Origin: an uncultured virus (IMG/VR IMGVR_UViG_3300023210_000030)
Taxonomy: Duplodnaviria > Heunggongvirae > Uroviricota > Caudoviricetes > Crassvirales
IMG/VR virus record: IMGVR_UViG_3300023210_000030
Length of the DNA stretch: 64,000 nt
Strand: one strand, 5' to 3'
The position numbers and the translations under genes are program-made. The notes under the pieces were generated by a model. That model was not told the origin of the DNA and did no database searches. It saw only the letters and a program-made list of their open reading frames with translations. Below, one piece after another: positions 13,246 to 64,000 of the stretch. Each line of letters begins with the position of its first letter. The stretch's first letter is position 1.

Positions 13246-13499
13246 TTATATATAATTTGCTTAAGTTTTGTTTGCAAATTTACAATTTCTTGACATTTTT
13301 CATACTCTTCAGTGTAAATAAAATAAGTTAAAAGCTCTTCATAAATAGGATTATTATGTCTTAATGGTTGGTCTTCAGGATTGTGTAAAAACCACAGATC
13401 TGCATCTGAATCTAAAAATTCTTCAATAGTTTTTTTACCTGTTATTAAAAGATAGGTATTGTTAAAACATATGTCTTCGTCAAAATTAGTATGTTCCAT
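13242..13499 (-). CDS. hypothetical protein with a UVR-like C-terminal motif
   Basis: YFIYTEEYEKCQEI; last gene of the - arm. Confidence 0.7.
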   Translation of the reverse strand: MEHTNFDEDICFNNTYLLITGKKTIEEFLDSDADLWFLHNPEDQPLRHNNPIYEELLTYFIYTEEYEKCQEIVNLQTKLKQIIYN

Positions 13500-16400
13500 A
13501 TAATTGATAATATAATTCAGGATTTTCTACTCTCATTACAGATTTACTTTTTAATTTAGTACTGCCTTTTTTATTTCTTTGTAGTTGCTCGTATAATTCA
13601 GGATTAGTTTCTTTAATAAATTTTAAATCTTCTTTTGAATATGACTTACCTAAAGCTGGTTGATATGAAGGACTAATTCCTAACACACTATACACAGCTT
13701 TATCTTGATCCTTATCTGTTGCTCCAAAAATATTATACAGGCCAATAAAAGGGTCTAATTGAGCTCCTAAGCCTATCTCTACAAGAGGTTGTATTCCTTT
13801 AGAAAGACTTTTATCTTTTGTAGCCTTAAATATTTTTCTACTTATAGCCTTATAAGGATTAACAACATCATCACTAAAACCTTTTCTACCTTTTATTTTA
13901 TTAATTCCTTCTTCTGCAGCTGATCCAAAAAGAGGTATTTGATATAATAAGTTTAATCCGTACATTGCATCTTTTACTCTGTTCATTGCTACCTCCTTAT
14001 CTTCATCATCACCTTTTATTAATAAAGCTATATTTGCAGCTAAAGCAAACATTACATTTGCTCCTGCAAAATTTAAAGCTAAAGCTCTAATATCTTTGCT
14101 TTTTACATCTCTAACTTTTCCTTTTTCAGCAATAGACTTCATGATATTAGATTGTGCTTGTAATACCTTATTTATTTGTAAAAACAAAGTACTTCCAAAC
14201 ATTGTAAATGGACGAACAAATGCGCTTTGACTTTGTTGAAGTGGAATTTTATCAGTGTCTCTTCTTGATTGTTGAGTAGCATTATAATTATTAAAAGTTT
14301 CTGCTGCTTTTGCTTTAGACATACCTTTAGATAAATTTCTTTCATAATTTACCATATATCCCATTACTCCCATAACATCTCCTATAACAGTTGGAGAGGC
14401 TGCAGCTTTTTTAAAGAAAGTAACTGCACGATTTATTCTTCCTTCAGCATCAGATCCTGTAAGTCTTTTTTCTATAGGCTTCATAATTCTACTTCCTGAT
14501 TCTAACCTATAAATATCTCCTTCTAAACCTTTACGCAAACGATCAGTAAAATCAGGTGATATTGTTTTAGCTAATCTTATGTAATAAGGAAGGTTAGCAA
14601 TTACTTTAGCCATTCCTATCATAAACTCACCAATATTACCATCATATTCTTCAAAAGCATTTACAAATGATGTAGATTGTTTAAGCAACTGAACTGCCTT
14701 AAAAGATAAAGCAAAACCTGTAAATTTAGTCATTATTTTATCTATAACTGTTCTATTTATCATTCCTGCTTGAGGGTTTAAAGCTAAATTAATAGAGTTA
14801 TATATAGTTTTTTTAACCCCTAATTCAGTTAATAAGGTATTAACAGCAGGAACTTTAAAAATAGCTTCTAAATTTTTAACACCTGGAGCATAAGCTTTAT
14901 ACCGTTCCATTTGTGAAATATGATTTTCTAATGTGTCAGTAAAAGTCTCCTTAGTATCTATTTTACCTGTCAAGTCAGTCCTATTTTTAGTAGCCGAATT
15001 GTTTTCTTGATTAAATACTTGGCTAAAATTACCTCCTTGTAGCTCTTGTTGATTAGCAGCAGAAATACTTTTAGTAGGAAAATAATTTTCCACAGGATTT
15101 AAATTAACATAATTATTTTGTAGATAAACATCATTAATGCTTTCAAAATAATCTGTGCTTAAATACTCTACAATTTTATCTGCAAACTCTATTGCATCTG
15201 TTCCGATAAACTCTTCTATTTGTAGTAATTGTTTTGGACCAAATCCATTAGCTTCTAATTTAATTCTTTGATCAGCGTTTTTAGATAAAGCATAAATTCT
15301 TATTAATTGACCAATATTATATTGGGCTTTAGTTTTATCATTTAACATTAATTCTCTAATCCCAAAAGGTATTTTAGATTTCCAATCTTTAAAGTTTTCT
15401 ATACCAGGGATAGTAGCAGCAATATTATTTAAAATTTCTTGTTGATTGTAATAGCCACTTAAAGCTTTAGTGTGCATTCTATTCATTGCTTGATAAACGT
15501 TTTCATAAAAGAATGTATTCTTTTTAGCAACATTATCTAATAAGTTCATTAGTGTTCCTAAATGAGACATTTGATTTCTAAAAAAATTTGCAATACCTAT
15601 TCCAGATGTAAATTTATATTGATTCCACCAATTTGTTAATTTGTTTTTAAGAGTACCAGAAAACATTTGATTTCTTATCTGATCTATTTTTTCGCTATCA
15701 AGAACTTCTCCTGTTACTTTATCAAATAACTCAGGATGGTTTTCTCTAATTTCTGAAGTTGCTTGATTATAAATATCATTGTTGATTTCAGCTCTTTCTA
15801 AACGTGATGCATTTAACATAGCAATAGAGGCTTTTTTCTCTTGTTTTAATAAATTATATAAATCTTTTACAGCTTCTAATTCTAAGTTTTGTATATTAGA
15901 ATAGGTGTCAAAAGCTAATACTCTATTAATTAATCTAACTTCTGCTACAGTTAATCTTTCATTACGTTTTTCTTTTTCTAAAGCTATATTGGTTGCTTCT
16001 TCGTTAGCTTTAATTTGATTAGATAATTTAGATAAGGCCACTGTTCTTTTGCTTGCCGTCTCTCCTTTTCCAATTGTATTTGGAAGTGTTACAGCTCTGA
16101 TGACATCAATAACATCTTTAAAAAACTCTTTACCTTGGGCTTCTACACTTGTTGCTTTAGGTCTGCTTCCTGTTTCTTTTAAAGCTTTATTAAGAATTTT
16201 TTTCATGTCAAAAATAATATTATTTTTAACTTGATCTCTTTTGCGATTTACTGTTTTTAATACTTTCTCTCCTACAGATAAAATAGAATCAGCATTAGAA
16301 TTAGCTACCAAAGTAAGTAAGTTTTTAACTTCTGATTTAGAATAAGTAGCTTCAGCAGGTAAATATTTATCTATTAATTGCTTAAGTTGTAATTGTACTT

Positions 16401-19400
16401 TTCTTAAATCTATTTCTCCTTGTTTTCTTAAATATAAATCACGTTTTAATCTTGCAATTCTTTTTTTAATTACTTGACTTTTTATATTATTAAGAAAACC
16501 TGCATAACTTATTTCTACCTGAGCTTTAACTGTTTTATATTGTGCTTTAAATATATCATTATTTCTTAGTATCTTTAAAGATTCTTTGGCTACTTGAATA
16601 GAAGTGGCGTTAGGATTTTTTCTCATCCATTTCTTTATTTCATAAGTAATTTCATTAAATAAAGTTTGTCCTTTGTTATCTTCTACACGAGTAAATTCAA
16701 AAGGCATACCAGTGAATTCACCTGTTTTTTGTTCTAATGCAGCTCGTGCAGCATCTACAGTTAATTTTCTGTTGTTACGTAAGTATTCATATATAGCAGC
16801 ATCACTATAATCTCTACCACGAGCTTTTGCTACTACATCATTAACAGTATCTGATTTGTCAAACAAAACAAATACAGAAGTTTTTACTTCACTCATATTA
16901 ACTTCACCTGTCATTGTAGGAACTTGACCTGGGCTATATGTAGAAGTATTTTCTTTACCAAAATTTGGTACTAATACTTCTGAACCAGCTTCTCTGTCTT
17001 GAGGTAAATGTAATATAGGCTTTCCTTCTTTTCCTTCAACTGGTTTACCATTTTCATCAACAATTTTTATAGTCTTATCATAACTTGGATGTTTACTATC
17101 AAAAGTTTTTACTTTTTGATTAACTTCTATAACTCCATATATATCTCCTGTGCTTAATCCTTTAGTGATATTTTCTGCCATTGCTAAAGCTAATAAGTCA
17201 GAAAGACCTTGCTGTAAAGCTTTCCCTGTTTTTGCTTGTACTGTTGATCCTACACCAACTTTTCTTTTAGTATCTCCACCTAAAAACTCAGCTGCCCTCA
17301 ATTGTTGTTCTGAAGTTAACTTAGCTGCTGCTAAAGAATCAGCAATACCTTTTACTATATTACCTCTTGTTTCAAATGTTCCTGATTTTTCATCGCTAAA
17401 TAACTTTACAATATCTTTCTTTATATCTTTTGCACTTTTTCTTAATTTAAAAGGCTTAAACTTTGGAGCAGGTTTCTTGTCTTTTTTAGCTTTTGTTGTT
17501 AGTCTTGCTTGTTCTCTTGTTACCGCCCTACTTACGGCAGCTCTGAATTCAGACGCTGAAAATATATTATTATCTAACATTAAATCTAAAATTTTCATAG
17601 CACCTTGAACACCCGAAGCACTACTCATTAATTTTTGATCTGAACCTTTAGCCAACATCAAAAAAGCTTTACCTTGTTTGTCTATTTGTTTGTTTAAAGC
17701 TTTTACTATTTGTTCTGCAGCTGCTTCAGTTGAAGCCCACACATCTCCAAATTTAGTTACAAAAAATATTCCTCCTGATCCTTCAAATATTTGTTCTCCT
17801 TTATATTTTATTTCACCTGCAAGCATATCATCAGGAGAATGAACAGAAACCTCTACATTATTACCCATGCCTTCAAATATTTCTTTGACAGTTTTAGGTT
17901 CTTTAATCAATCCATCTTTTATATACTCAGCTATCTTTTCATCTTCTGTATATGTGATTTCAAAATCACCATAAATCATTGTCTTTAAAGCAGCTGAAGG
18001 ATTTTTAACATTTTTACCTCCAGCAAATAAATCAAGTTGTTTTACATCTGACTTAGTAATTGTTTCTCCTGTCTGTACTTTACCTGCAATTACGTTTATC
18101 AAGTCAATCATATCTTTATCAGTTGCAATAATATCTTCTGCAGTTAACCCTAACAAATTACTTAACTTACTTAAAAATTTTTGTACAATAGTTTTTTCAG
18201 GAGCTTTTAAAGTAGCCATATTGTTAGCTAAAAAACTAAATACCTCTGCCATGTATTCTTCGTTAGCAAAAGCCATTCTTTTTTTATCTCCTTTGTTATA
18301 TTTTTTATATAAATTAAGGTATTTATCAATTTGTTTTTTTGCTTCAGGACTTAAATCTGCTTTAGCAAGAGCCTTCATCATTCTGTCAGAAAGTGCAGCA
18401 ATTTTAGATTCTGATCCTAACTTATTTTTTAATATAGCATGAAATACTTCGTGTTGTAATACACGTGCATTTGCAATATCAGCATTTATATGTATAATAT
18501 TAGTCTTAGGGTTAAATAATCCAGCTGATCTTACTTTGTTGTTACCTGTAGCGTTTTGATAGTCTGCTTCCGTTTCATGAATAACAACCATTACTTTAGG
18601 TGCTAATCGTTTTAAAGCAGCTAAAGCTCTTTTTGTTGGTTTTATAAATTTCTCTGAACGTTTACGTGATCCTGAATCAGATTCATTTACATAAGCATTA
18701 GGAGCTATAGCTTTTAATTCTTTTACTTTCGCTTTCTTTTGCGTGTCTGTTTTTTGTTTTTCAACTTTTGTATCGGACTCACTTTTTCTGGAAGGGATTT
18801 CAGATTTGGCGTTTCCTTGATCCACCTCTGGAGTAGTTGTGGTTTGTTCTTGGCCAGGTATCGTAGTTGTGCTTTGCTCTGTATTGGCATCTTGTTTAAT
18901 TTCAGTTTTATTTATTATGCTATCATCTAATATAATTATTTCACCCGTTGTTCCATCTTCGTATTTTGTTATAATAGAATCATAACCATCTTTTATTAAA
19001 GCTTTAGATAATGCTTTTCCTTTTTTTCCTTTGTATTTTTTTGATAACTCTCTTTTATATTCAATTTGTGTGTCATCTGTAACTTCAATAACTAATGGCG
19101 ATTTAATATCTGCAGTTCCTGATTCAAAACCATCAGGAGTAAAACCATTATCTTGTGTAATATAAATTCAGCTTGCTTCAACATCTTGTCCAAATTCAGA
19201 ACCCATATCGGGGGACTTTTCTTTGTTTCTATTATACTTTATATTAACAGGTTGATTAGTTTTAATTTCATCTCCTTTAACAACTTTAACCGTCTCTTCT
19301 ACTACTTCTGTTTGATTTTCAGAGGTATTCTCTACCTCTGTTTCTACTTCTATTTCTTCAGCTAAAGATTTTGCTTCTTTTTTTGTCTCAGGTGTAGTCT

Positions 19401-21081
19401 CAACAGTTTCTTTAGTTTCTTTAGTTTCTTTAGTTGTTTCAGTTACTTTTGTTTCTTCAATTGCCTGCATTTCTGCAATTATTTTTTTTCTTCTTTCCTT
19501 AGCAGCCTGTGATTTATTTCCCTCTAATTTATTTAATTCTTCTTGTAAAGGAACTAATTTGTCTAAAGTTTTTTGAGGAATATCAGGTTTAGCATCTAAA
19601 ATTTCTTTTTGAGCGTTTGCTTTTTGTTTTATTTTATTTCTTCTTTCTTCAGCAACTTTTTTTAATTCAGGATTGTTGGTTATAGTAATTTCTGTTGCTG
19701 CAAAATCTTTATCAGAAGAATTGTATACCATATCTTGCATAACATCAGGGTCTACTCTTGTTAAATCTTTTTGAGACTCATCAAACTTACTTTTATTAAT
19801 ATAATATTTTGGAGATTTGTATGCTGATATTGCAAGTGTACCTGGAAGTGTAGCTGTACCTGCCGCACCTTCAAATAATATTTCTGCTGCATCCATTTCT
19901 TGACCTGCTGCAAGTCTACCTCCTATTTCTCCAAGAGACCCTCCTACAGCCTCAATGGCCCCTACTTTAACTCCTGCTTTTAGACTTTTTTTTACGCCAT
20001 ATGCTGCTTTCTTACCTAAAGTTCTTGCCCCTACTTTAATACCTACTTTAGAAGCAATACCATCAATAGCTCCAATAACAGCTCCTCTTGCTGCCGCCCT
20101 ATTTCTTATACTACTCATTGCATCATCACTCTCTAAAACATCTCTTACACCTGCCTCATCAAATTTCAACCCTCTATCTAAAACTTCTTTTTGTAAAAGT
20201 TCTGCAAAAGTCAATCCTGTTTCTAATGTCACACCTGCACCTGCAAAAGCTCCTAAAGCTGTTCCAAGAACAGGAACTGCAGAACCTCCTAAACCTCCTA
20301 CTGCCGCACCTGCTAAAACAGTAGGGTTTAACATAGCGCTAACTGAAGAAACAAATAATTGTCCTATGGTACTTGGGTTAGCAATAACTCCTTTTACCCA
20401 TCCCCATGCACCACCACCATTTTCTGCGTAAATGCGATTAAAATCTTTCATCTCATCAGACACCCCTGCATTTTGCATTCTGCTTTGAGCTGCTAAAAAA
20501 TCTTGAATATCATCTGAAGTAATATCCATTCCCGTCCTGGATTTACCCATAAGTTCTAAAGCTTCATCTACTGTACCTCCTTGCGCTTGCCCTTGAACTC
20601 CTGCACGCCACATATCTCCAAAGAAATCTGTAAATTCATTTTTACCAAAAGTACGCTCTAAAGCTGTGCTTTTTTCTCCTACCGATAAATTTTCCATCTG
20701 AGAGTCAGACCCTATAGGACTATAAGGTTTTACTTCTGCTTGATTAAAATCAAGATTTTGTTCGTTTAAATAAGCCGAAGAAATAGGCTGAACTCCCTCC
20801 TCTTCTTGTAAAACTTCCTCCGTAATTTCCATGTCCCCAGAACCATCTGAATCCACTGGAACGGGTTGAGGCTGATCTTTTTTTTTTACACCTTTATCAA
20901 TACCAAATAAAACACTAAAATCTTGTTCCGAGCCATTATACCCTGTTTCTTTAAAATATTTATAAGTATCTTTTACAGCATTAGGATTTGTCGCCATTAA
21001 TTGCACGTAATCTTCTAAAGAACCTTTATATCCAGTTTCTTTAAAATATTTATATCCGTCTTGTATAGCTTGTTCGTTCAT
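13486..21081 (-). CDS. giant internal virion (ejected, polyvalent-type) protein; one frame with a single in-frame TGA at 19168-19170
   Basis: Track ORFs 19168..21081 and 13486..18825 share a frame and the gap translates without further stops; contains a Gly/Ala-rich hydrophobic segment, an ART-like GYDS...E segment and an HEVFH + EEYMAE metallopeptidase motif. Confidence 0.8.
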
Positions 21082-21086
21082 TATGC

Positions 21087-22826
21087 TTATGTATTGTAAT
21101 TTGATCCTGTTCCGCTATTAGGTGCTGTGTACCCTGGCATATCTTCACCATAAATTTCATTATACTTATCATTATTATATTTATTTATAGCTGGATTTAT
21201 AACATCTGATTGCACAAGTTCCCAAATATTTGCATTTGACCTTCCTCTTATCTTAGGTATTACTAAACGTTCTCCTCCAAGCTCCACAACCATAAATTCA
21301 TCTTCTCTCTTACCGTTCCTTCCTGCACCTTCATATTGTCTTTCAGCTTCTTGCCATGTTTTAAATGAATTTTTTGTTGCTCCATTATTTAAATCTGCAT
21401 CAGGAATACGATAGGCTTTTCCTCTTCCTCCTCTTTGTGAACCACCTACTACAGTGTAATAAACTTCATATGTTTTTTCACCAGTTGATGGGTCTACTAC
21501 TTCTTTAATTGATTTACCATCTATATAATTTATACTTAAACCTTGACCACTATTGTTAAAAAACTGTTGCACTGGCGCTGGAACATATGACTTTGTAGCG
21601 TCATAATAAGTAGATTGTATTTCTGCATCTGTATCAGAACTACCTAAATCCGAAGATCCCCTACCAACATCTTTTTCTAATTCATCTTCTATATAATCAA
21701 GTCCTGTAGTATTTAATTGATTAGGGCCTATCACTCTTGGTTGTGCAAAATCAGGTAACGGTCTTTCTGTTTTTCTCCATAACTCTTCATTTCTACGATC
21801 ATCTACTTTAGAAGACCCATCTCTTGTTCTAACAGCTTTTATTTTACTGTCCATCTGATCTTTCATTACTTCTTCTAAATATTCTTTAGCAGCTAATTCT
21901 TGTTTTGTCCATCTGTCTCCTTTTATAATAGTAGGTTGATTGTCTTCAGAATAGTCTATATGTATAGCATTTTCATTAGTATCATTTAAATCTGTTGTAG
22001 TGTAATAATCTTGACCCATAGAGTCTACCAATACACTTGCAACATCTAAATCTTTAACCATAAATCCATCTATATATTTAGATACCTTAGCTGACTGTCC
22101 TTCCCAGAATTTAGTAGCATCACCAATTTGACCTGCCTCTTTCATAGTAATACCTAAACCATCTACTATAGCACTTGTTCTATCTTGTACATTAAATTTA
22201 TCTAATCTAAAACCTAATCTTTTATTCATCCCTGTAAAAGGCATATGTTTAGAAGGGTCTTTTGGTATACTACCATCTTCATTAGGTCTAACTAAAGAAA
22301 TATCTCCCGATGTAGGGTTTACATATTGCACTAAACCTTTTAAGTTTCCAAAAGCTAATGCTGACTTAGCAAAATTTTGTTCAATTAATGAAGAGCCTGC
22401 AAAATTTGTTGAAGGATCAGCTTTTATACGTTCTTGATATTCTTTATAAGACTTATCATAATTTTTAGCAGCTTTACTAAAATCTGCAAAATTATTTGAA
22501 ATACGATCTCTTGCTTTAGTTAAATCTGTTTGATTAATTAATCCGTCTGTATATAATTTATTTTGTATAGATAAAAACTCTTGAGCTCCACCTGAAGCAT
22601 CAATAACTAAACTATTAAGCGTGTTGTTATCATACTGTTCGTGATCACGCAATGTTCTATTAGCTTCATACGTCTTATCTTCTTCTTCACTTAATTTAAG
22701 TTCTTTTTCTTTTTTTATTGCACTTAATTGAGTTGTTAAACCAGAGGCAACTGTTCCCCAATCAATAGTTGATTTAGTTAAATCTTCAGGAACAAACGTG
22801 TTAAAATTTATATTTTGTCTTGCCAT
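21087..22826 (-). CDS. putative internal virion (ejection) protein
   Basis: 579 aa, helical; lies between the tail genes and the giant protein. Confidence 0.6.
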   Translation of the reverse strand: MARQNINFNTFVPEDLTKSTIDWGTVASGLTTQLSAIKKEKELKLSEEEDKTYEANRTLRDHEQYDNNTLNSLVIDASGGAQEFLSIQNKLYTDGLINQTDLTKARDRISNNFADFSKAAKNYDKSYKEYQERIKADPSTNFAGSSLIEQNFAKSALAFGNLKGLVQYVNPTSGDISLVRPNEDGSIPKDPSKHMPFTGMNKRLGFRLDKFNVQDRTSAIVDGLGITMKEAGQIGDATKFWEGQSAKVSKYIDGFMVKDLDVASVLVDSMGQDYYTTTDLNDTNENAIHIDYSEDNQPTIIKGDRWTKQELAAKEYLEEVMKDQMDSKIKAVRTRDGSSKVDDRRNEELWRKTERPLPDFAQPRVIGPNQLNTTGLDYIEDELEKDVGRGSSDLGSSDTDAEIQSTYYDATKSYVPAPVQQFFNNSGQGLSINYIDGKSIKEVVDPSTGEKTYEVYYTVVGGSQRGGRGKAYRIPDADLNNGATKNSFKTWQEAERQYEGAGRNGKREDEFMVVELGGERLVIPKIRGRSNANIWELVQSDVINPAINKYNNDKYNEIYGEDMPGYTAPNSGTGSNYNT

Positions 22827-22828
22827 AA

Positions 22829-23893
22829 TTAAAATTGTGATTTAATTCCGTACTTAAGTAATATATCATCATAAGATACTTGAGGAAGTGGTACATAACC
22901 TGGTATACCCATATTAGGGTCTTGAGTAGTAGGAGGTGGAGCTAAAGAACCCCCCGCTGCTTGAATTGCAGAATTTCTTTGTTGACCTATAATATTATTT
23001 GGATTTGGACCTGTGTTATAATTCATTTCTACTATAGACTCATCCATCAATTCTTTATCACTTAAACCACCAAGAGTGATAGGCCCTGCATCCATATCTA
23101 TTAACTGATTTAACTGCTTTTTTTGCAAGTCCAATGTGTTTTGAATTACAGGATCACTTCCATCTTTATTTACAGAAGGTTTAGGCATTTCTAATCCTGC
23201 AGGAAGCGTGCCTAAACTCATTAAACCATCTTCAATAGGACCACCGTCTGCATTAAAAAATAAATTTTTATACTGATCAGGATTTGCTGTATAATCTGCA
23301 TAAGATATATTGTTTTTATCTAATGTAGATTTTAAAGCTTTTGTATCTTTACTCATAGGGTTTTCAGGAATATCTTTTGCCAGTGTAGTAGCCATGTTTG
23401 TTAAAGAATTAATACCACTCATAGTAGCCCCCGCCACAACCTGTCTTGTTTGTGCATCTCTTGCTGCCTTATCTTGTAACTGAGCCGTTTCAATAGCTAA
23501 AAGCTGTTGATTTATCTCACTCTGTTCACCCATCTGCAACGCTTCAATTTCTTGTAACCTATCTGTTTGTGAAAGACGAACAGCTTCATTGGCTGCCGTT
23601 TGAGAAGCACCTATTCTTCCTGCTAATGCAGCAACCTCTCTTGGTCCCGCTTCTCTTGCAGCATTTACTAAATCTGCATTTACTTGTAAGTTTTGCTCAA
23701 ACTGCTGTTCATATAAATCTGTATTTAAACTAAGCTTATCAGTAAACTTAACTCCTGCTCTGTCTTTTAATTTCGCCATTTCTTTAGCGGCCTGTCTGTT
23801 TGCTTTTCTATTGTCTTCTGCAGCTTTAGAAGCTTGTGCAAAGCTTAAACCTGCGCTTCCTAAACCAATAGCTATTGTTGTTATTGCTCCCAT
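22829..23893 (-). CDS. putative internal virion (ejection) protein
   Basis: Hydrophobic Gly/Ala N-terminus followed by an Ala/Gln-rich coiled coil, as in podovirus ejection proteins. Confidence 0.65.
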   Translation of the reverse strand: MGAITTIAIGLGSAGLSFAQASKAAEDNRKANRQAAKEMAKLKDRAGVKFTDKLSLNTDLYEQQFEQNLQVNADLVNAAREAGPREVAALAGRIGASQTAANEAVRLSQTDRLQEIEALQMGEQSEINQQLLAIETAQLQDKAARDAQTRQVVAGATMSGINSLTNMATTLAKDIPENPMSKDTKALKSTLDKNNISYADYTANPDQYKNLFFNADGGPIEDGLMSLGTLPAGLEMPKPSVNKDGSDPVIQNTLDLQKKQLNQLIDMDAGPITLGGLSDKELMDESIVEMNYNTGPNPNNIIGQQRNSAIQAAGGSLAPPPTTQDPNMGIPGYVPLPQVSYDDILLKYGIKSQF

Positions 23894-42384: not shown

Positions 42385-42640
42385 ATCCTCTTAAAGTATT
42401 AGTTTTAGAATCGGAAACATTTCCATCTAATAAATTTTTTTCTTCTTCTATTTTTTTTAAAATTTCAAAAGCATCCATAATACATAATTTTTTTGTTGCC
42501 GCAGCATTTTTTAATCTATCGGCAGCCAACTCATCTTCTGTATCAAATTTAATAATATCTTCTTTTGCAACTTTTATTAATTGACTTACAGCTTTTTTAC
42601 CAGCTTCTATTATTTGTATTTTTAATTCTTTACTATTCAT
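42362..42640 (-). CDS. hypothetical helical protein, possible terminase small subunit
   Basis: 92 aa overlapping the terL start; assignment from position only. Confidence 0.5.
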   Translation of the reverse strand: MNSKELKIQIIEAGKKAVSQLIKVAKEDIIKFDTEDELAADRLKNAAATKKLCIMDAFEILKKIEEEKNLLDGNVSDSKTNTLRGFAESRSK

Positions 42641-43202
42641 TTAAAATTATAGTTATATTAGGAGTTAACATTCTATAAAGAACCTCTCCATCTACAGTAA
42701 ATTCGTATTCACTATCTGGTTCAAAGATAATTTCATCTCCTTCATTAACGCCTAAAGATAATAATTGTTTGTTAATATATTTAATAACACCAACTAAAGG
42801 TTCATATTTAGAACCTTTATCTATAAAAGATTCTTTTTTTAAGACAGGTTTTACAAAACAATATTTACCATGAGCGTTCCATTTACCATCATGTTTGTAC
42901 AAAAAAAATTGATCTTGTTCTACAAAAAACAAATTTTCTTTAAAAAAACTTTTACCGCTTTTAATATTACCATACATATCGTTGTAAAATTTAAATACAT
43001 TGTGATGCACAAGTAATGTGTCTCCTATTTCTATTTCTCCATTATAATGTAAAGGTAAAGATATAACTGTGGCAAAACGATTTGAAGCCTGATGGTCTTC
43101 TTCGGAAACACTTGTAATAAAATCTAAGCCTCCTATATTTTTAATATTATCGTATCTTCTATTATTATATGGTTCAACTATAAATGAGTATAAAGACCTC
43201 AT
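42633..43202 (-). CDS. tandem GroES-like (two-domain co-chaperonin) protein
   Basis: Two units with GroES-like pattern: FIVEP...ATVISLP...IEIGDTLLV and CFVKPV...GVIKY...GVNEGDEIIF...FTVDGEVLYRM. Confidence 0.6.
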   Translation of the reverse strand: MRSLYSFIVEPYNNRRYDNIKNIGGLDFITSVSEEDHQASNRFATVISLPLHYNGEIEIGDTLLVHHNVFKFYNDMYGNIKSGKSFFKENLFFVEQDQFFLYKHDGKWNAHGKYCFVKPVLKKESFIDKGSKYEPLVGVIKYINKQLLSLGVNEGDEIIFEPDSEYEFTVDGEVLYRMLTPNITIILNE

Positions 43203-43582: not shown

Positions 43583-46500
43583 TTATACTACCGCATCAAG
43601 TGGTATGTAATAGTCAACTCCATTTATTTTTACTGTCCATCTTCCAGATTGAGTAAAAGTTGTAACTGCATCTGTAACTCCTAAATTATGAAGAGCTGTT
43701 CCAATTGCAAGTTGATTAACCGCATCTGTAGATGCTCCTCTACCAATTGCACAACTATTAGCATTAAGGTTACTTGTTCCTTGCCCTATTGATATTGCAT
43801 AATCGGCATCAGCTGAAGCGTTTGCTCCAATAGCTATTGAATAATTTTCATTAGCGGTAGCTTGATTTCCAATACCTATAGCGCCAGTTATTAGACTTGT
43901 GGTACCTCCTCTTGATTGCGGCCCTATAGCAATGTTATCTGATCCTTTTGTTTGTGAAGATCTTCCTATTGCAATATTATCTTCTACTGCATCTGCATTG
44001 TCCATAGCATTTTCACCTATAGCAATATTATAATCACCTGTAACAGTTGCGCTGGCTGCCATAGCATTTTTTCCTATAGCTATTTGATTTGTTCCACCTA
44101 CTCTGTTAATTAAGGCTTGAAATCCTAAAGCAATAGATTCTGAAGTAACCCCTGCTTGCATAGCGCTTTTACCAATTGCTATTGGATTAATATTAGCTTT
44201 ATTTGTTTGAGAAGAATTATTACCAGCATAATACCCTAAAAATACCGCTCCTCCTACTGCTGATGTTGAATTAAACTCTCCTGAATGACCACCTATAGAA
44301 ACATTTCCTATTCCTTGTATTAAATCAGTAACTCCGTTGTCATCACCCGCCTGAGCTTTATATCCTATTGCAACTCTTGCTGTTTCTTCATTAGTACCTA
44401 CTGCAGGTGTGCTATTTGAACCATAAAATAATGCTTGATATCCAATAGCAATGTCAGCCCCACCATATGATTCTTTTGCTGCTTCACATCCTATTGCAAT
44501 ATTATATGTTTGAACTGTAGCAGTTAAAGATTGTGCATCTTTTCCTATTGCTACATTACATTCTCCAAAAGTATTTGCCGCTAATGCATTTAATCCTATT
44601 GCAGTATTAGCCTTTCCATTTATACTATTAGTAGCTGCTAATGCCGAATCACCAATAGCTACATTATTATCACCTAAATTATTAGCTGCTAATGCATTAA
44701 CACCTATTGCTAAGTTTTTAAGTCCTTCTGTATTAGCTGCTAAAGCGCTTGTACCTACTGCAATATTATCTGAACCTCCAAGATTAGCTGTTAATGAACT
44801 TGTTCCAATAGCTACATTATTACTTGTTGTTTGACTGGCCTGTAAGGCACTCGTTCCAAGTGCTATATTACTTCCCCCTGTTAAGTTCCCTGCTAATGCG
44901 CTTGTTCCAAGAGCTATATTACTTCCACCGCTTGATGTTGCCGCTAATGCACTTGTTCCAATAGCTATATTACTACTTGATGATGCTGAAGCTTGTAATG
45001 CATTTGAACCAATAGCAATAGTGTTTGAACCACCTGTTGTTGCTGCACCCGCATTATTACCTATAAATACTGAAGAAGAAGAACTATCATTAATTCCTGC
45101 CGCATCTACATTACTCCATCTATAGGAGCCTCCAACTGCATTATATATAAATCCTTTAGCAAGTCCACCTGAACCTAATACTAAATTATATCCTTGTTTT
45201 GTTGTAACTCCATTTGCTATTGCAACACTTGACTTCGCACCATCAGCAGCATCTTCAGCAAAAATAATACTTCTTTTTAATCCTGCTGCTGTATCAGCGC
45301 CAGAGTCTGCCTTATATATCCATCCCACTGGTTCATCAGGAATAGCAAATGATTTAATAGCTATTTTTAAATTATCAGCTGTAGCTTCTATTCCGTTATA
45401 AAAATTAGTTACACTACCTTCTCCTGCTCCACCACTTCCTGCACCTTCTGTTGTTCCATCTATTTGAAATACTCCTGATGTAGTTATTGCTGTTCCTGCT
45501 GTACCGTCATCTCCTGAAAGCTGTATTGATGTAACTGTACCTGTAGTAAGTGTAGGAAATTCTACAAGAACACCTGTTCCGTCAACATATTGATCTGTTG
45601 TTCCTGTTGAAGTTAATGCTAAAGTTCCAGAAGCTGTTACAGGGCCTCCTGACACTGCAAATGCAGCAGCTCCTGCAGAAGCAGTACCACCTGTTACATT
45701 ATAACTTATATCTACTGATGTTACTGTACCACTTGGAACAGTAGCCCATGTAGCATCTCCTCTTAAGAATTTATCGTAATCTGCTGAAGCTCCTAAAGGC
45801 TGAGGAACTAATCCACTTGTTCCGTCTGCTGGAACACTTGTAGCTCCTTGAAATACACTATATTGTGTGTCCGTTGGTGTTACCCAATTACCAGTCCCTT
45901 GTAAAAATTGTAATTCATTTGCAATTAAAGGAGCTGGAACTGCACCTTTTAATCCATTAGTACCACTTGTTGCTCCTGTAAAGGTATTTATAGTTATATC
46001 AGGTGTTGCTCCACCTGTTGATTGTATTGGTAAAGTTCCTGAAACGGCCGTAACTGTACCGCTTGGGACAGTAGCCCATGTACCGTCTCCTTTTAAATAC
46101 TTAACATTATCGGTTATTCCAGGTGCTGGTACAGCACCTTTTGTTCCTAAACCAACGGTTACACCATCTGAACCTACGAAAGCTGCTAAAGATACTGTAA
46201 CAGTATTAGGAACAGCACTAACAGCTGCTATACTTAATCCATCTGTTGATGTCCCTTTAAAGTTTATTACTTCCCCATCTCCTATCGTTACAGCAGTACC
46301 TCCGTCTCCTTGTATATCAAATCCTGCATAAGAATTGTTAACCGCCCATGTACCGTCTCCTTTTAAAAATTTATTGTAGTCTGTTGCTCCTGATGTTCCT
46401 AATGGTGCTGGAACCCCTCCAGGATTACCATCTACACCACTTGATGCTGCAGTAAATGCATTTAATGTTATGTTAGCTTGATCTGATGCTGCAACACCAC

Positions 46501-49500
46501 CTACTACAGTAATACCTCCTGTACCGTTTAGTGTTAATGTGTCTGTTGCGCTTAGTGTTTGATCGTTACCACTATCTCCTGCAAATATCCAATTTTGATA
46601 ATCATCAGAAGTAGGTAATGTAACAGTCTCAAACTGAACTGCCGTTATATGACCTTGTGTTGATGATGTAATAGTTTTAGCAATAACAAAATCCCCTCCT
46701 GAACCTGGTGATAAAGTTGTAGCCGTAGGGTCAGCTCTTGTTATTGCATCATGGTTAAATGTTACGTTATTTGTTGCAGAAACAGTAGATGTTATATCTG
46801 TACCACTTAAAAAGTTTACTGTTGCACCGCTTGTTATTGTTTGTGTTATTGGTGTTGAAGCATCGTCTGATATTACAAAATCATATGCAGACCCTGCAGG
46901 CGTAGCCCATGTACCATCTCCTTTCAAGAATTTATCGTAATCTGAAGAAGCTTCAAGTGGTGCGGGTACGGCACCACTTGTTCCGTCTGCTGGAACACTT
47001 GTAGCTCCTGTAAAAGTATTTATAGATACCGCTGGTATAGCTGGGTTAGTTACATTATCTAATACTATAGGTAAAACACCTGATACTGATGTTACTGTAC
47101 CACCACCAGCCATTGTTGTCCAACCCGCTGTACTTAAGAACTTTCCGTCATCAGCTACCAAAGGCGCTGGCACACCTCCTTGTAATCCTGGTGTTGCACC
47201 TGGAACATCTGGTGCCGTAAAAGGATCTAAGTTTATTATTAATTTATTTGGGAGTTGCACAGCCCCTGTGTTTGTTGAAATACCAGTTCCCCCCGTAAAT
47301 AAAACTTCTCTTTGATCTGGAACCCCTTGATTTGATGTACCAGCATCTCCTGACATAAACCAAGCATTGTAAGAATCGTTTGTTTCCCAAGTTCCGTCAC
47401 CTTTTAAAAATTTTAGGCTATCATTTATTGTAGGTGCTGGTACGGCACCTATAACACCATCTGCTGGAGTAACAAGGTCTGGCCCTTGAAATGCTTCTAA
47501 ATTAATTGTTGCTATATGGTTAGGGTTTGTTCCTGATACAACTGTATTCAGTCCATCACCCCCTAAAATTGATACATTCTCATCATCAGTTACTTGCTTA
47601 CTTCCTGTATCTCCAATTAATGTCCATCCTAAAAGAGAACCGTTTACATAGGCACTCAAGTCTGAAGCCACTACTTTACTAACTGGTGTCCCACCTACTG
47701 TATTACTTGCATCAGATAGAATAAAAACATCAGTATCAGCCACAGTTGTTACAGTAAGAGAAGTTGCTAATATAAAATTATTAGCAGGAGTAACAAGGTC
47801 AGCATAAATTAATGAAACTATATTTGTCGCAGGATCTATATTTATAGGCACTGTTCCTGTATATGATGAGCCTGGAACAGAAGTCCATGTACCGTCTCCT
47901 TTTAAAAATTTATTAACATCAGCTACTAATGGTTGAGGAACAGTTCCTTTTGAACCATTTGTTAAATTAGAAACGTCTGGCCCTGTAAAATCAGTTATGT
48001 TTAACGCTGGTACAGCTGGGTCAGTTGTTGAGTCTACTGTTAATGGTGCTGATACTGACACTCCTGTTAAAGTACCTGAACCTGAAGGTGTTGCCCATGT
48101 GCCGTCTCCTTTTAAGAATTTATCGTAATCAGTTCCTCCAACTCCAATAGGTGCAGGGACTAATCCTGCTGTTCCATCAGCACCGTTTGGAGGTGATGCA
48201 GATGAGTCTTGAGCTCCAACAAAATTAACGTATTCTGTGTTTGGCGGAGTAACCCATGTGTTATCTGCTCTTAAATATGAAGTTAAAACTGTAGCTCCAT
48301 CTAAAGAGGCTGTAGGAGCAGTTAATCCTACTGTTAAAATATTAGTAGCACTAATATCTAATCCTATGTAATTGTAATCTATAAGATTTATTGTATTTGT
48401 TTGTTCTGTAAATGTTATTGTGTTGTTTGTAACATCTATTGTTCCTCCAGCACTTACAGGGCTTGTAGCTATTGCAAAAGAAGACATTCCTGAACCTGTA
48501 GACGAATCAATAGTAATTACGTTAGCCGCTGTTGTTATTGTTGTACCTCCTGTTCCTAAAAACTCCACTGTATCACTTGAAAAGTCTGATCCTGATAGCA
48601 CTAATTTATTATCAGTATTTCCTATATTTTGAACTGTATATGTTGCATTATTATTTCCTCCCGATATAGTTATTGTATCACCATCTTCATAACCCGCACC
48701 AGGACTATTTATTGAAGTTGCAGTTATTTCTCCTGTAGTTGGATCAACGATAACTATATTTATCGCAAACCCTGATCCTGTTGCGCTATTAGTTGTTGTT
48801 GCAGCAGCCCCTACCGAATAACCTGTTCCTCCACTTACCTGTAAAATATTTAAGCTATCTATTGTCCCTCCTGCTCCTAATTCATATGTTGTATTATTTG
48901 ATGCTGTTCCATTTGTAGCAGAAGTTATTCTTCCGTAAGCATCAACAGTTAAATTAGTATTTGTATAAGACCCTACTGTTACTCCAGTTAATGGTAAATC
49001 AACATCTAACGTTCCTGAAGACGTAATAGGACCACCCGAAACACTTAAAGTACCGAGTGTAGAAGAAATATCAACTGATGTTACAGTACCTCCACCTGCA
49101 GAAGAACTTATAGTTATCTCACCAGCTGGACTACTACTTGATTGAACTAATTTAATATTAGTTCCTTCTTTAAATCTAACAGTACTGCTTCGGCCTGAAG
49201 TATCACTATTTTGTAAATCTTTTGGTCCTGAATTACTACTAATTATTAATCTACAAGGAGTTATACTTGTTCCACCTGAAACAACAAACATTTGATTAAC
49301 AGGATAACCCGTTCCTGGTGTTGTAATTGTTGCTGATTGTACAATACCTCCACTTGTATTTAAGGTAACTATTAATCCTCCTGTACCTACACTAACATTT
49401 GGAGTGGTAGGATCAGTGTATCCCGTACCACCTTGATTAACATCTATTGTAAGAGGTACTTGACCAGTAAAACTATTTAACCAAGATAAATTCCAATCAG

Positions 49501-51175
49501 CTCCATTTGGATTTGAAAATTTTCCTGTAGCATCATAGTATCTATTTGAACTTATTGTATTAATAACAATTTCAGCCGTAATACCTGTAGAACCAGGTAC
49601 CGTAACTCTGTCTCCAGGCAGATAACCTGTTCCTCCTGAAACAACTGAATAATCAGAACTATTAGCAATAGTAGTAGATAATACATTAATTGTAAATCCT
49701 GATCCTTGCCCTGAAACTGTATCACAAACAACGCTGTTTGATGGTGTATAATTATCTCCGTTTGTTGAAATTTGTTCAGTAAGAACAACTCCTGTTCCTG
49801 CAGGAATAGATGTTCCTGTTGTCAGTAAACTTCCTAATACACTTGGTACAGCGGCTGTTCCACCTATTGATGTATTAATATAGTTAGATGTTCCACCTAC
49901 TATAGAAGTTACAACTCCTGACCCTCCTGCTGCTGGTTCCCAAGTTGGTGTAAGAAATGGTCCTGCTGAAGTTAATACTTGACCAGATGTTCCTGAACTT
50001 GCACCTAAATAAATAGGTGTATAATCACCAGGTAAATTTAAAGAACCTCCTACAGATATTATACCCTGTGCAGCAGGAACAGTTACATCACCATTACCTA
50101 CTAATGTTATATTAGCAGATGTACCACTTGCACTATTTCCATTATCTAAAACTTCTTGTAAAGTTAAAGATAATCCACTTACTTGTGTCCACGTAGGAGT
50201 TAATAAATCTCCTTGAGAAGTTAAAACGTAACCCGCTGTTCCTGCGCTTCCCTTAAGTCTTAATTCTGTAAAATCTCCTTGAAAATCTAAAGCTCCACCG
50301 CTAATATTTAAAAATCCTGTTGTTGCTGGAACTGTTGCATCAGCATCTCCTACTACTTTAACAGTACCTAAAAAATTAACTTGTGTATCTGCATCAAAAC
50401 TTGTTGTTGAACCAGTATTAGTTCCAATAAACTCAATGCCTACTCCTGTTAAAACATTATCAAACGATGCAGTTGGAGTACATACATCCTGTAGTGTAGG
50501 AGAAGTTACTGTAGGACTGCTTGTCCATTCTAAACCTGTTTCATCTGAATTTACAGCTAAAAACTGACCATCTGTTCCAAATACTCCGTCAATTTGTAAT
50601 TGTGTTTTTTCTTGTAAATTTAAAGCATATGTTGCTATCACAGCTGCAGGATCACCAATTGTAACAGTATTCTGTATATCAACTATACCATTCCATAATA
50701 AAGAAGTGTTTATGCTTCCTGTTAAAGCTCCTGGTGAAGCAACATCATTGGTGAAATTCATACTACTGTCATCCACCACAAGAGTTCTTGCTGTTACAGT
50801 ATTTCCATTAGCAACAACTTCATCCCAAGTTAAAGTAGTTCCAGGAGCAGGAATCCATGCGATTCCCGTTCCTGTAGAACTTAATACTTGTCCATTTGTA
50901 CCATGACTTCCTTGTGTTCCTGCTGATATTACAGTTGGAAAAACATCTACAGCACTTAAAATACCTGTGCCTGTAAGTGTTATATTGTTAGAAGCGGTAT
51001 TACCTACATTTAAAACAGATTGTAAATCTTGTAATCCTCCCCCACCACCAGAAATTAAATCACTGACTAAAAATGTTACGGTTTTGTTATTATCGTTAAC
51101 ATCAGTTCCTATAAGCAAGTCTGATGCCGAAGGGACGATGGTTGGATATACCGTAGTATTAAATATTTTAGCCAT
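43583..51175 (-). CDS. very long tail fibre/adhesin with a YadA-head-like C-terminus
   Basis: 2530 aa, Thr/Gly-rich; about 10 G.VPAP...KFLKGDGTW repeats; GGTGY modules; many 14-aa N(I/V)AIG..AL repeats. Confidence 0.85.
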   Translation of the reverse strand: MAKIFNTTVYPTIVPSASDLLIGTDVNDNNKTVTFLVSDLISGGGGGLQDLQSVLNVGNTASNNITLTGTGILSAVDVFPTVISAGTQGSHGTNGQVLSSTGTGIAWIPAPGTTLTWDEVVANGNTVTARTLVVDDSSMNFTNDVASPGALTGSINTSLLWNGIVDIQNTVTIGDPAAVIATYALNLQEKTQLQIDGVFGTDGQFLAVNSDETGLEWTSSPTVTSPTLQDVCTPTASFDNVLTGVGIEFIGTNTGSTTSFDADTQVNFLGTVKVVGDADATVPATTGFLNISGGALDFQGDFTELRLKGSAGTAGYVLTSQGDLLTPTWTQVSGLSLTLQEVLDNGNSASGTSANITLVGNGDVTVPAAQGIISVGGSLNLPGDYTPIYLGASSGTSGQVLTSAGPFLTPTWEPAAGGSGVVTSIVGGTSNYINTSIGGTAAVPSVLGSLLTTGTSIPAGTGVVLTEQISTNGDNYTPSNSVVCDTVSGQGSGFTINVLSTTIANSSDYSVVSGGTGYLPGDRVTVPGSTGITAEIVINTISSNRYYDATGKFSNPNGADWNLSWLNSFTGQVPLTIDVNQGGTGYTDPTTPNVSVGTGGLIVTLNTSGGIVQSATITTPGTGYPVNQMFVVSGGTSITPCRLIISSNSGPKDLQNSDTSGRSSTVRFKEGTNIKLVQSSSSPAGEITISSSAGGGTVTSVDISSTLGTLSVSGGPITSSGTLDVDLPLTGVTVGSYTNTNLTVDAYGRITSATNGTASNNTTYELGAGGTIDSLNILQVSGGTGYSVGAAATTTNSATGSGFAINIVIVDPTTGEITATSINSPGAGYEDGDTITISGGNNNATYTVQNIGNTDNKLVLSGSDFSSDTVEFLGTGGTTITTAANVITIDSSTGSGMSSFAIATSPVSAGGTIDVTNNTITFTEQTNTINLIDYNYIGLDISATNILTVGLTAPTASLDGATVLTSYLRADNTWVTPPNTEYVNFVGAQDSSASPPNGADGTAGLVPAPIGVGGTDYDKFLKGDGTWATPSGSGTLTGVSVSAPLTVDSTTDPAVPALNITDFTGPDVSNLTNGSKGTVPQPLVADVNKFLKGDGTWTSVPGSSYTGTVPINIDPATNIVSLIYADLVTPANNFILATSLTVTTVADTDVFILSDASNTVGGTPVSKVVASDLSAYVNGSLLGWTLIGDTGSKQVTDDENVSILGGDGLNTVVSGTNPNHIATINLEAFQGPDLVTPADGVIGAVPAPTINDSLKFLKGDGTWETNDSYNAWFMSGDAGTSNQGVPDQREVLFTGGTGISTNTGAVQLPNKLIINLDPFTAPDVPGATPGLQGGVPAPLVADDGKFLSTAGWTTMAGGGTVTSVSGVLPIVLDNVTNPAIPAVSINTFTGATSVPADGTSGAVPAPLEASSDYDKFLKGDGTWATPAGSAYDFVISDDASTPITQTITSGATVNFLSGTDITSTVSATNNVTFNHDAITRADPTATTLSPGSGGDFVIAKTITSSTQGHITAVQFETVTLPTSDDYQNWIFAGDSGNDQTLSATDTLTLNGTGGITVVGGVAASDQANITLNAFTAASSGVDGNPGGVPAPLGTSGATDYNKFLKGDGTWAVNNSYAGFDIQGDGGTAVTIGDGEVINFKGTSTDGLSIAAVSAVPNTVTVSLAAFVGSDGVTVGLGTKGAVPAPGITDNVKYLKGDGTWATVPSGTVTAVSGTLPIQSTGGATPDITINTFTGATSGTNGLKGAVPAPLIANELQFLQGTGNWVTPTDTQYSVFQGATSVPADGTSGLVPQPLGASADYDKFLRGDATWATVPSGTVTSVDISYNVTGGTASAGAAAFAVSGGPVTASGTLALTSTGTTDQYVDGTGVLVEFPTLTTGTVTSIQLSGDDGTAGTAITTSGVFQIDGTTEGAGSGGAGEGSVTNFYNGIEATADNLKIAIKSFAIPDEPVGWIYKADSGADTAAGLKRSIIFAEDAADGAKSSVAIANGVTTKQGYNLVLGSGGLAKGFIYNAVGGSYRWSNVDAAGINDSSSSSVFIGNNAGAATTGGSNTIAIGSNALQASASSSSNIAIGTSALAATSSGGSNIALGTSALAGNLTGGSNIALGTSALQASQTTSNNVAIGTSSLTANLGGSDNIAVGTSALAANTEGLKNLAIGVNALAANNLGDNNVAIGDSALAATNSINGKANTAIGLNALAANTFGECNVAIGKDAQSLTATVQTYNIAIGCEAAKESYGGADIAIGYQALFYGSNSTPAVGTNEETARVAIGYKAQAGDDNGVTDLIQGIGNVSIGGHSGEFNSTSAVGGAVFLGYYAGNNSSQTNKANINPIAIGKSAMQAGVTSESIALGFQALINRVGGTNQIAIGKNAMAASATVTGDYNIAIGENAMDNADAVEDNIAIGRSSQTKGSDNIAIGPQSRGGTTSLITGAIGIGNQATANENYSIAIGANASADADYAISIGQGTSNLNANSCAIGRGASTDAVNQLAIGTALHNLGVTDAVTTFTQSGRWTVKINGVDYYIPLDAVV

Positions 51176-62804: not shown

Positions 62805-64000
62805 TCATGCCCTCATGTTTGTTACTATAGCGTTTGTGCTAAGTATAGTTGTTGCTACACTTATTGCATTAGTCAATGCGTTCTTAGTAACCTTAAGAGG
62901 ATCAATAACACCTAACTTATACATATCTCCATACTTGTTATTCTTAACATCGTACCCATAATTATATTTTTTGTCATATAATTGTTCTATAACTTTATCT
63001 CTATCCTTTCCTGCATTGTCTAATATTTGAATAAGAGGTGAGCGTAATGCAGACTCTAAAATTAAGACTGCATCTTTCTCATCTTGATTTTTAGTTTTAG
63101 CTGCTAACATCATTGATTCTCTAAACAGAGCTATTCCTCCGCCTGCTAATATACCTTCTTCAAGTGCTGATCGTACAGCACACACAGAATCGTCTACCCT
63201 GTCATACTTTTCTTTTTGTTCCATCTCTGAGTTACCTCCCACATATATACACCCAATAGATCCTGCTAAACTTGCTATACGTTCTTTTATAAATTCATTA
63301 GATGCTTTGTCTTTTGTGTTTTTCTTTTGGATTTTTAATTCTGCAATTCTATCGTTTAACTCTGGTGTGCTGTTATCTTTTTTAAATATTACAGATGAAT
63401 GCTCACCTACTATAACTTTATCAGCAACTCCTAAGTCAGAAGTTTGAATTAAACTTAAATCATCTCCTGTTTTTTCAGAAAAGTATGTAGCACCTACTGA
63501 CATAGCTATATCTTGCATAAGCTCATGTTGTTTGTATCCAAACTGTGGTGGCTGAATATTACAGAACTTAAGACCACTACGAACTACATTAGCTGAAAGA
63601 GTATTTACAACGTTAGGAGAGCATGGTGCAATGATTAACAGTTTATCTCCGTTGTTAATTACAGGTTTTAATACATTTTCTATTTGTAAGATGCTACTTA
63701 TTTCTGCATCACAAACTAATATTTTAACATCTTCAAGAATACACTCGTCCTTTTTTTGATTATTAATAAATAAATGAGACGAATAACCTCTTGCAATTTT
63801 TATTCCATTTGTCACATCAGCATATGTTTCAGCGGTCATAGACTTCTCTACAGTTACCATACCGTTAATTCCTACTTGTGTGTAAGCATCTTTAATTATT
63901 TTACCTATAGTCTTATCGTTATTCGCAGAGATAGATGCAACATCTAATAACCTTTCTTCTGTAACTTCTTTAGAAACATTTTGCAAACAACTTATAATAT
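62805..64000 (-). CDS. groEL: chaperonin GroEL (5' part outside the window)
   Basis: VASISANND, VTVEKS, RGYSS..FIN, ERIASL, EKYDRVDD..AVRSALEEGILAGGG, GVIDPLKVTKNAL; frame stays open to the window edge. Confidence 0.95.
   Translation of the reverse strand, partial: IISCLQNVSKEVTEERLLDVASISANNDKTIGKIIKDAYTQVGINGMVTVEKSMTAETYADVTNGIKIARGYSSHLFINNQKKDECILEDVKILVCDAEISSILQIENVLKPVINNGDKLLIIAPCSPNVVNTLSANVVRSGLKFCNIQPPQFGYKQHELMQDIAMSVGATYFSEKTGDDLSLIQTSDLGVADKVIVGEHSSVIFKKDNSTPELNDRIAELKIQKKNTKDKASNEFIKERIASLAGSIGCIYVGGNSEMEQKEKYDRVDDSVCAVRSALEEGILAGGGIALFRESMMLAAKTKNQDEKDAVLILESALRSPLIQILDNAGKDRDKVIEQLYDKKYNYGYDVKNNKYGDMYKLGVIDPLKVTKNALTNAISVATTILSTNAIVTNMRA

Follow-up and report, generated by a model that had tools for sequence, protein, structure and literature searches.

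How is a stop codon deep inside a giant phage gene to be read: as a recoding site, as the boundary of two genes, or as a fault of one assembly? The question is raised by a stretch of 64,000 nucleotides from an uncultured virus (IMG/VR record IMGVR_UViG_3300023210_000030; the window in what follows), in which two long minus-strand open reading frames (ORFs), called as proteins of 637 and 1779 aa, share one frame around an in-frame TGA. An earlier note, made from the letters alone, had taken both ORFs for a single 2531-codon gene and had considered programmed readthrough, a nonsense variant or a base-call error as explanations of the stop. The analysis reported here shows that a single gene occupies the locus and encodes a polyvalent virion protein of 2531 aa, that the TGA at 19170 is private to this assembly, and that near-identical phages carry the gene intact. 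The features at issue are the following.

13486..21081, minus strand: giant virion gene of 2531 codons, a single ORF in viral contig L001 and in full-length members of the nearest protein clusters; last gene of the virion operon
19168..19170, minus strand: in-frame TGA found in this assembly only; GGA (Gly638) in relatives and in contigs from sequencing runs
18823..18825, minus strand: GTG of the called 1779-aa ORF, an internal codon (Val753) inside the full-length protein of relatives

Translation of minus-strand positions 13486-21081 gave 2532 codon steps with a single internal stop (codon 638, TGA, 19170-19168) and a terminal TAA. The frame around the TGA stays open for 648 codons upstream and 1893 codons downstream, and the peptide encoded between the two called ORFs matches the one quoted in the earlier note. 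The window contains four minus-strand stops with at least 80 open codons on each side. Three of them are followed by an ATG at most 6 codons downstream; for the TGA at 19170, the nearest in-frame ATG lies 193 codons on. Whereas the other minus-strand genes of the window are preceded by an A/T-rich leader, none stands before the GTG at 18825, which is not a start codon of a real protein.

The closest relative, viral contig L001, differs from the window at 5 of 15,138 bases (99.97% identity). One of the five is 19170, where L001 has GGA; it encodes one ORF of 2531 aa, and Gly at 638 is the sole amino-acid difference. Twenty public runs, drawn from 12 studies and mostly of seawater, marine or brine metagenomes, contained at least half of the sampled words of the region, with no RNA run among those listed. 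Four runs from four studies (X1, X3, X7 and X9) were compared at 19170; of these, X1 and X3 but not X7 and X9 carried a flag as a possible source of the window. In all four, the covering contig had C on the plus strand at full depth, rare alleles being apt to drop out of contigs. The two nearest protein clusters have 11 members, nine of which are 2528-2531 aa long with Gly at the site. The other two, a 200-aa fragment and a 1779-aa piece, are partial and do not span the codon. In the protein collection, the 637-aa product and the 1779-aa piece are each found on one 65,808-bp contig, and we infer that this contig is the window's own assembly.

In the wider family, the codon lies in a compact domain that we call ART-A, for its likeness to ADP-ribosyltransferases (ARTs).

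18904..19257, minus strand: compact domain ART-A (residues 609-726), predicted to have an ART fold from a structure model, fold searches, an hhalign comparison and 835 related clusters

Since a Gly-requiring pattern and protein databases cannot show a stop, family scans were run with codon 638 left free (NNN) and a homolog cut-off of at least 40 bits. For the same reason, 80 loci found with a pattern that demanded Gly and 151 protein stretches were excluded as evidence against a stop. The codon-free scans returned homologs in 62 of 69 viral matches and in 85 of 119 metagenome matches, the latter among the matches listed. On this scope, all 147 homologous loci have GGN at the codon (GGA 48, GGT 44, GGG 30, GGC 25) and none has a stop codon within the domain; with some duplicates present, the 62 viral and 85 metagenome loci correspond to 46 and 77 distinct peptides. 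The remaining 41 of the 188 matches (7 viral, 34 metagenome) scored below 40 bits and were dropped as non-homologs. Three of these 41 have a stop at the codon (L138, L201 and L297), along with many further stops and sequence unlike the domain. An exact 40-nt pattern of the junction matched one viral contig, that of L001, and no stretch in the metagenome scan.

The phage population thus reads GGA, and no recoding is needed. The TGA is a G-to-T change that most likely arose as a library, sequencing or consensus error. Among the differences listed over the 10.2 kb compared, only one other base, 23606, is unlike both L001 and all four runs; it is a silent change and, like 19170, a C>A change on the plus strand. 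C>A changes are the pattern left by oxidative damage, and the two changes fit such damage to the library. Two considerations temper this explanation: two private changes, counted among the differences listed, are too few to prove a damage signature, and the base evidence comes from contigs, in which rare alleles would not show, so that a real low-frequency or sample-specific nonsense allele keeps a low probability.

Broken copies of the gene are common in these assemblies. Among 33 ortholog loci, 21 have complete ORFs of 2023-3127 aa, nine run off the locus and three (L019, L028 and L029) are frameshifted, each broken elsewhere. L029 differs from the 99.87%-identical L040 by a 2-base gap, and L019 from L020 by indels of 23 and 32 bases.

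A real nonsense allele private to the sampled lineage is unlikely, though it accommodates some of the facts. The TGA is the consensus base in a long assembly (the 637-aa product stands on one 65,808-bp contig), and UGA followed by A is leaky in bacteria, so that a defective genome kept through co-infection, leaky decoding of the UGA, or an allele sampled just once could each be imagined. Such an allele would, however, break a Gly found without exception in 151 aligned stretches and would delete about 1,890 residues that none of the 21 complete ortholog ORFs lacks. No second carrier of the TGA was found in the run contigs, the junction scan, the protein clusters or, among the matches listed, the codon-free scan.

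Programmed readthrough, giving 637-aa and 2531-aa forms, is very improbable. The long open frame on either side and the TGA-A context would suit it, but the stop is conserved in none of the 147 homologous loci among the matches listed and in none of the four runs. It also falls at residue 30 of a folded domain of 118 residues, before a core strand and not at a boundary; the short product would therefore end in a domain fragment. The RNA of 19050-19200, the single stretch folded, folds no better than its shuffles (z = +0.45), and the residue inserted when a UGA is read through is usually Trp, Cys or Arg, not Gly. Where phage structural genes of the Qbeta A1 type are read through, the stop is a conserved one at the end of a complete domain. 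The likeness to that system is superficial and goes no further than a virion protein whose two in-frame parts are separated by a UGA, whereas the window's stop occurs in one assembly only and inside a domain. A literature search, mostly of open-access papers, found no account of readthrough in these phages, nor of an ART-A subfamily. The earlier note had judged an error or variant at least as likely as readthrough and Gly (GGA) a fitting residue at the codon, and both judgements were borne out by L001, the runs and the wider family. Its readthrough proposal falls, as GGN in relatives and run contigs is the outcome that the note itself had named as speaking against it. As a case of recoding, the locus has no significance, the stop being private to one assembly. 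What it does illustrate, and cleanly, is that a change of a single base can turn a giant phage gene into two separate database entries, of 637 and 1779 aa.

Two genes with separate initiation, for proteins of 637 and 1779 aa, are just as hard to credit. A 1770-aa protein on a 23.7-kb contig (P0193) was also called from the same GTG; it is, however, 99.7% identical to P0194, a member of the lineage with another cassette (see below), whose gene is one ORF of 2632 aa. The GTG lacks a leader, most of a conserved folded domain lies in the 114 codons between the two ORFs, and L001, L002 and L008 each carry a single ORF. The earlier note's one-gene reading, and its remark that the downstream ORF had only a GTG without an A-rich leader, were accordingly confirmed. 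Least probable of all is decoding of TGA as Gly (as in NCBI translation table 25), for which the conserved Gly at the codon could be cited, because 24 ORFs of the window, with 16,102 codons in all, have one in-frame TGA against 1,370 GGN codons, TGA terminates three other ORFs of 40 checked, and the window contains zero tRNA genes.

What is the domain that the stop interrupts? ART-A has 835 relatives among 50%-identity clusters (E<=0.001); of the best 150 of these, 59 have at least 1000 aa and 31 fewer than 250 aa. Besides Gly638, E635, P662 and L691 are invariant in all 151 aligned stretches. The structure model, made with an input alignment of 39 sequences, reached a predicted local distance difference test score (pLDDT) of 95.4. 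The top Foldseek rows obtained with it were mostly ART domains, and a wider fold search (VIA) returned 43 chains at Z>=2, with 31 of the top 33 from the ART superfamily (PARP, diphtheria-like or RES-type folds), five of them presumed to belong there and not so titled. Because the fold-search rows are consistent, while Z itself is middling, residues 609-726 are shown by the model to adopt an ART fold. A local hhalign comparison with an ART-PolyVal-like profile, built from 44 stretches drawn from the analysis's own matches, gave a probability of 96.4% and a pairwise E of 1.1e-9 over the C-terminal 71 columns; in global mode, the probability was 26%. The neighbour of ART-A in the ESM Atlas (score 0.93) has 12% PF18760 members. 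These comparisons support the earlier view of the interrupted segment as an ART-like domain of the polyvalent-protein kind.

Three results weigh against the assignment. Foldseek gave no match at E<=0.001 (best E 0.014), the best VIA match had only Z 5.9 (root-mean-square deviation (rmsd) 3.7, 104 residues aligned), and the Pfam family ART-PolyVal (PF18760; cut-off 31.2 bits) did not match ART-A at E<=1. The Pfam model matches just 2 of 39 members of the ART-A family at E<=0.1 (best 3e-4), and a sequence search of solved structures with ART-A found nothing at E<=0.001.

ART-A resembles ART-PolyVal (PF18760; the Tox-ART-HYD2 clade) in its P-L/NP, GYD and final E-I-V pattern and often adjoins a canonical ART-PolyVal domain in one protein, but it has a signature of its own, N-x-E-K-A-P and F-G-Q-D-[VI]-E-P-x-G-x-Y. 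Iyer et al. (2017; PMC5512222) describe polyvalent ARTs as enzymes with a His-Tyr-Asp set, placed in strands 1, 2 and 5 respectively, that probably modify host proteins. In ART-A, Y640 (Y 142, F 9 of 151) and D701 (150 of 150) are conserved, and strand-1 position 618 is R in 57, K in 53 and H in 32 of 145 stretches; the strand register was inferred from the pattern, the global alignment being of low confidence. The window's module is shorter than the polyvalent ARTs of that paper and has Arg where His was described in strand 1. We regard ART-A as polyvalent-ART-like by predicted fold and by context, with putative catalysis.

Related domains turn up in other settings. In an unrelated large phage (246.8-kb contig), a 328-aa protein (L003, 2270-3256; L004, 7863-8849) has the ART-A domain in tandem with a canonical ART-PolyVal domain, and the adjoining gene has AAA_33 and tRNA_lig_CPD matches. 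A protein of 4957 aa (P0104) contains 13 ART-PolyVal-like stretches and one ART-A domain. Residues 1419-1599 of a pre-ejectosome chain of cyanopodophage A4 (PDB 9k3a_B) match the ART-A model with Z 5.1 and rmsd 5.2 over 96 aligned residues, at 8% identity. Judging by its length, this podophage ejection protein would be gp27. The main text on cyanopodophage A4 (PMC12002296) contains no mention of 'ADP-ribosyl' or 'NAD'.

Two further regions of the giant protein could be delimited.

19438..20694, minus strand: conserved N-terminal block, residues 130-548 (phrog_32588, unknown function; E 1.4e-62), present in 33 related loci
18202..18639, minus strand: putative zincin-like metallopeptidase region, with HExxH at residues 877-881 and a later EEYMAE stretch

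No Pfam family scored above its cut-off anywhere in the 2531-aa protein. The metallopeptidase assignment rests on the HExxH motif, which is common to 15 of the 33 ortholog loci; the Pfam result for the region, Zn_peptidase (E 0.048), is weak and below the cut-off. The giant protein, encoded among the virion genes and joining an HExxH region to an ART-fold module, is a phage polyvalent protein of the sort described in PMC5512222, where metallopeptidases are the commonest partners of polyvalent ARTs. In 8 of 18 scanned proteins, homologs of ART-A stand together with ART-PolyVal, LPD, PBECR5, ddrB-ParB or RadC domains. The product of the giant gene joins a known group of phage proteins, with an ART-like cassette that Pfam misses. 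Polyvalent proteins are likely injected, according to PMC9503650.

The window is that of a tailed phage, with terminase, portal, structural and tail genes, primase, helicase, holin and amidase. The closest cultured matches of its terminase, from Flavobacterium elemo phages (44.8%) and Cellulophaga phages (about 36%), suggest a host among the Flavobacteriaceae. The giant gene is the last of the virion operon, behind terminase, portal and structural genes and two genes of 354 and 579 aa.

21087..22826, minus strand: 579-aa gene directly upstream, by its position a probable second ejection protein
22829..23893, minus strand: 354-aa virion structural protein (phrog_13764, E 7e-8), a probable small ejection protein; contains position 23606

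The 579-aa product has no PHROG or Pfam match, and two relatives have genes of 450 and 644 aa in its place. The three genes that podophages of the T7 and P22 kinds have at this place encode ejection proteins. The layout at the end of the virion operon is the same in Flavobacterium phage elemoE_6-9C, whose Elemovirus gp18 (YP_010109083.1) aligns with residues 830-1342 of the giant protein (27.5% identity, E 5e-28). Unlike the giant protein, gp18 has 3694 aa; 20% of the query is covered and the terminases are 44.8% identical, which makes it a distant relative. Given where the gene lies and that this ortholog is labelled a 'structural protein', the giant protein is likely packaged and injected, by analogy with podophage ejection proteins.

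Among close orthologs, the place of ART-A is not always occupied by ART-A.

18898..19312, minus strand: cassette slot, filled with unrelated modules in a phage of 97% identity (blastn breakpoints against L002, six ortholog states, a junction in run X7)

L002, whose gene is a single ORF of 2632 aa, is 97% identical to the window on both flanks and has unrelated sequence between window positions 19312 and 18897. Close orthologs (L009-L017, P0153-P0157) and the window together present six states of the slot.

ART-A: the window
second ART-like type: L011, L012
second ART-like type with module B: L010
module B alone: L013, L014, P0153, P0154
module C with module B: L009
empty: L016, L017

On sequence grounds, the module is shown to be exchangeable. 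ART-A is also dispensable for the giant protein, because orthologs show an alternative or an empty slot, whereas the part after the stop is never lost in complete orthologs. Run X7 contains right junctions of the window type as well as of the B type, and run X9 has another unlike junction at 19348. The second ART-like type and ART-A alike match the ART-PolyVal-like profile weakly, the former with an E of about 0.001 in a set of 33 sequences. Module B had no usable Atlas match and no significant Pfam match, and its single-sequence model reached a pLDDT of 45. Window 19278-19257, which encodes G-D-E-I-K-T-N before ART-A, agrees with the right junction of module B (L002, about 2780-2800) at 19 of 21 bases, possibly a microhomology for cassette exchange. 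ART-A is 95.7% identical between P0151 and P0001, proteins that are 80% identical overall, and this could reflect either purifying selection or recent exchange. A second mosaic segment, window 16882-18201 (residues 961-1400), is 50.5% identical to P0001; in the same comparison, the ART-A module and the surrounding segments are 90-96% identical.

The following mechanism may be envisaged. The giant protein would sit in the head and then be injected in the manner of podophage ejection proteins, the HExxH peptidase might release its domains, and the ART module would, early in infection, modify a host target by means of NAD+, being swapped under host-phage conflict. We advance it tentatively, as possible rather than probable, that ART-A is a widespread minimal ART subfamily missed by Pfam and an active injected enzyme, and that the slot is an effector-switching locus setting which host defences can be surmounted. 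If so, near-identical marine phages, even within one sample, would differ in payload, with two ART types and two unknown modules in use and some phages carrying none. More modestly, the analysis provides a compact ART-like family with a well-folded model that Pfam misses, slot alleles among 97%-identical phages, and a small testable set of candidate injected effectors in phages of marine Flavobacteriaceae.

Elsewhere in the window, a GroES-like gene (phrog_13932) is found at 42633-43202 and a GroEL-like gene (phrog_5725) at 62805-63986, cut by the window end; the two lie 19 kb apart in a phage of about 66 kb. A second giant ORF, at 43583-51175, encodes 2530 aa with tail-spike and YadA-head matches, and its near-equal length to the gene studied here looks coincidental.

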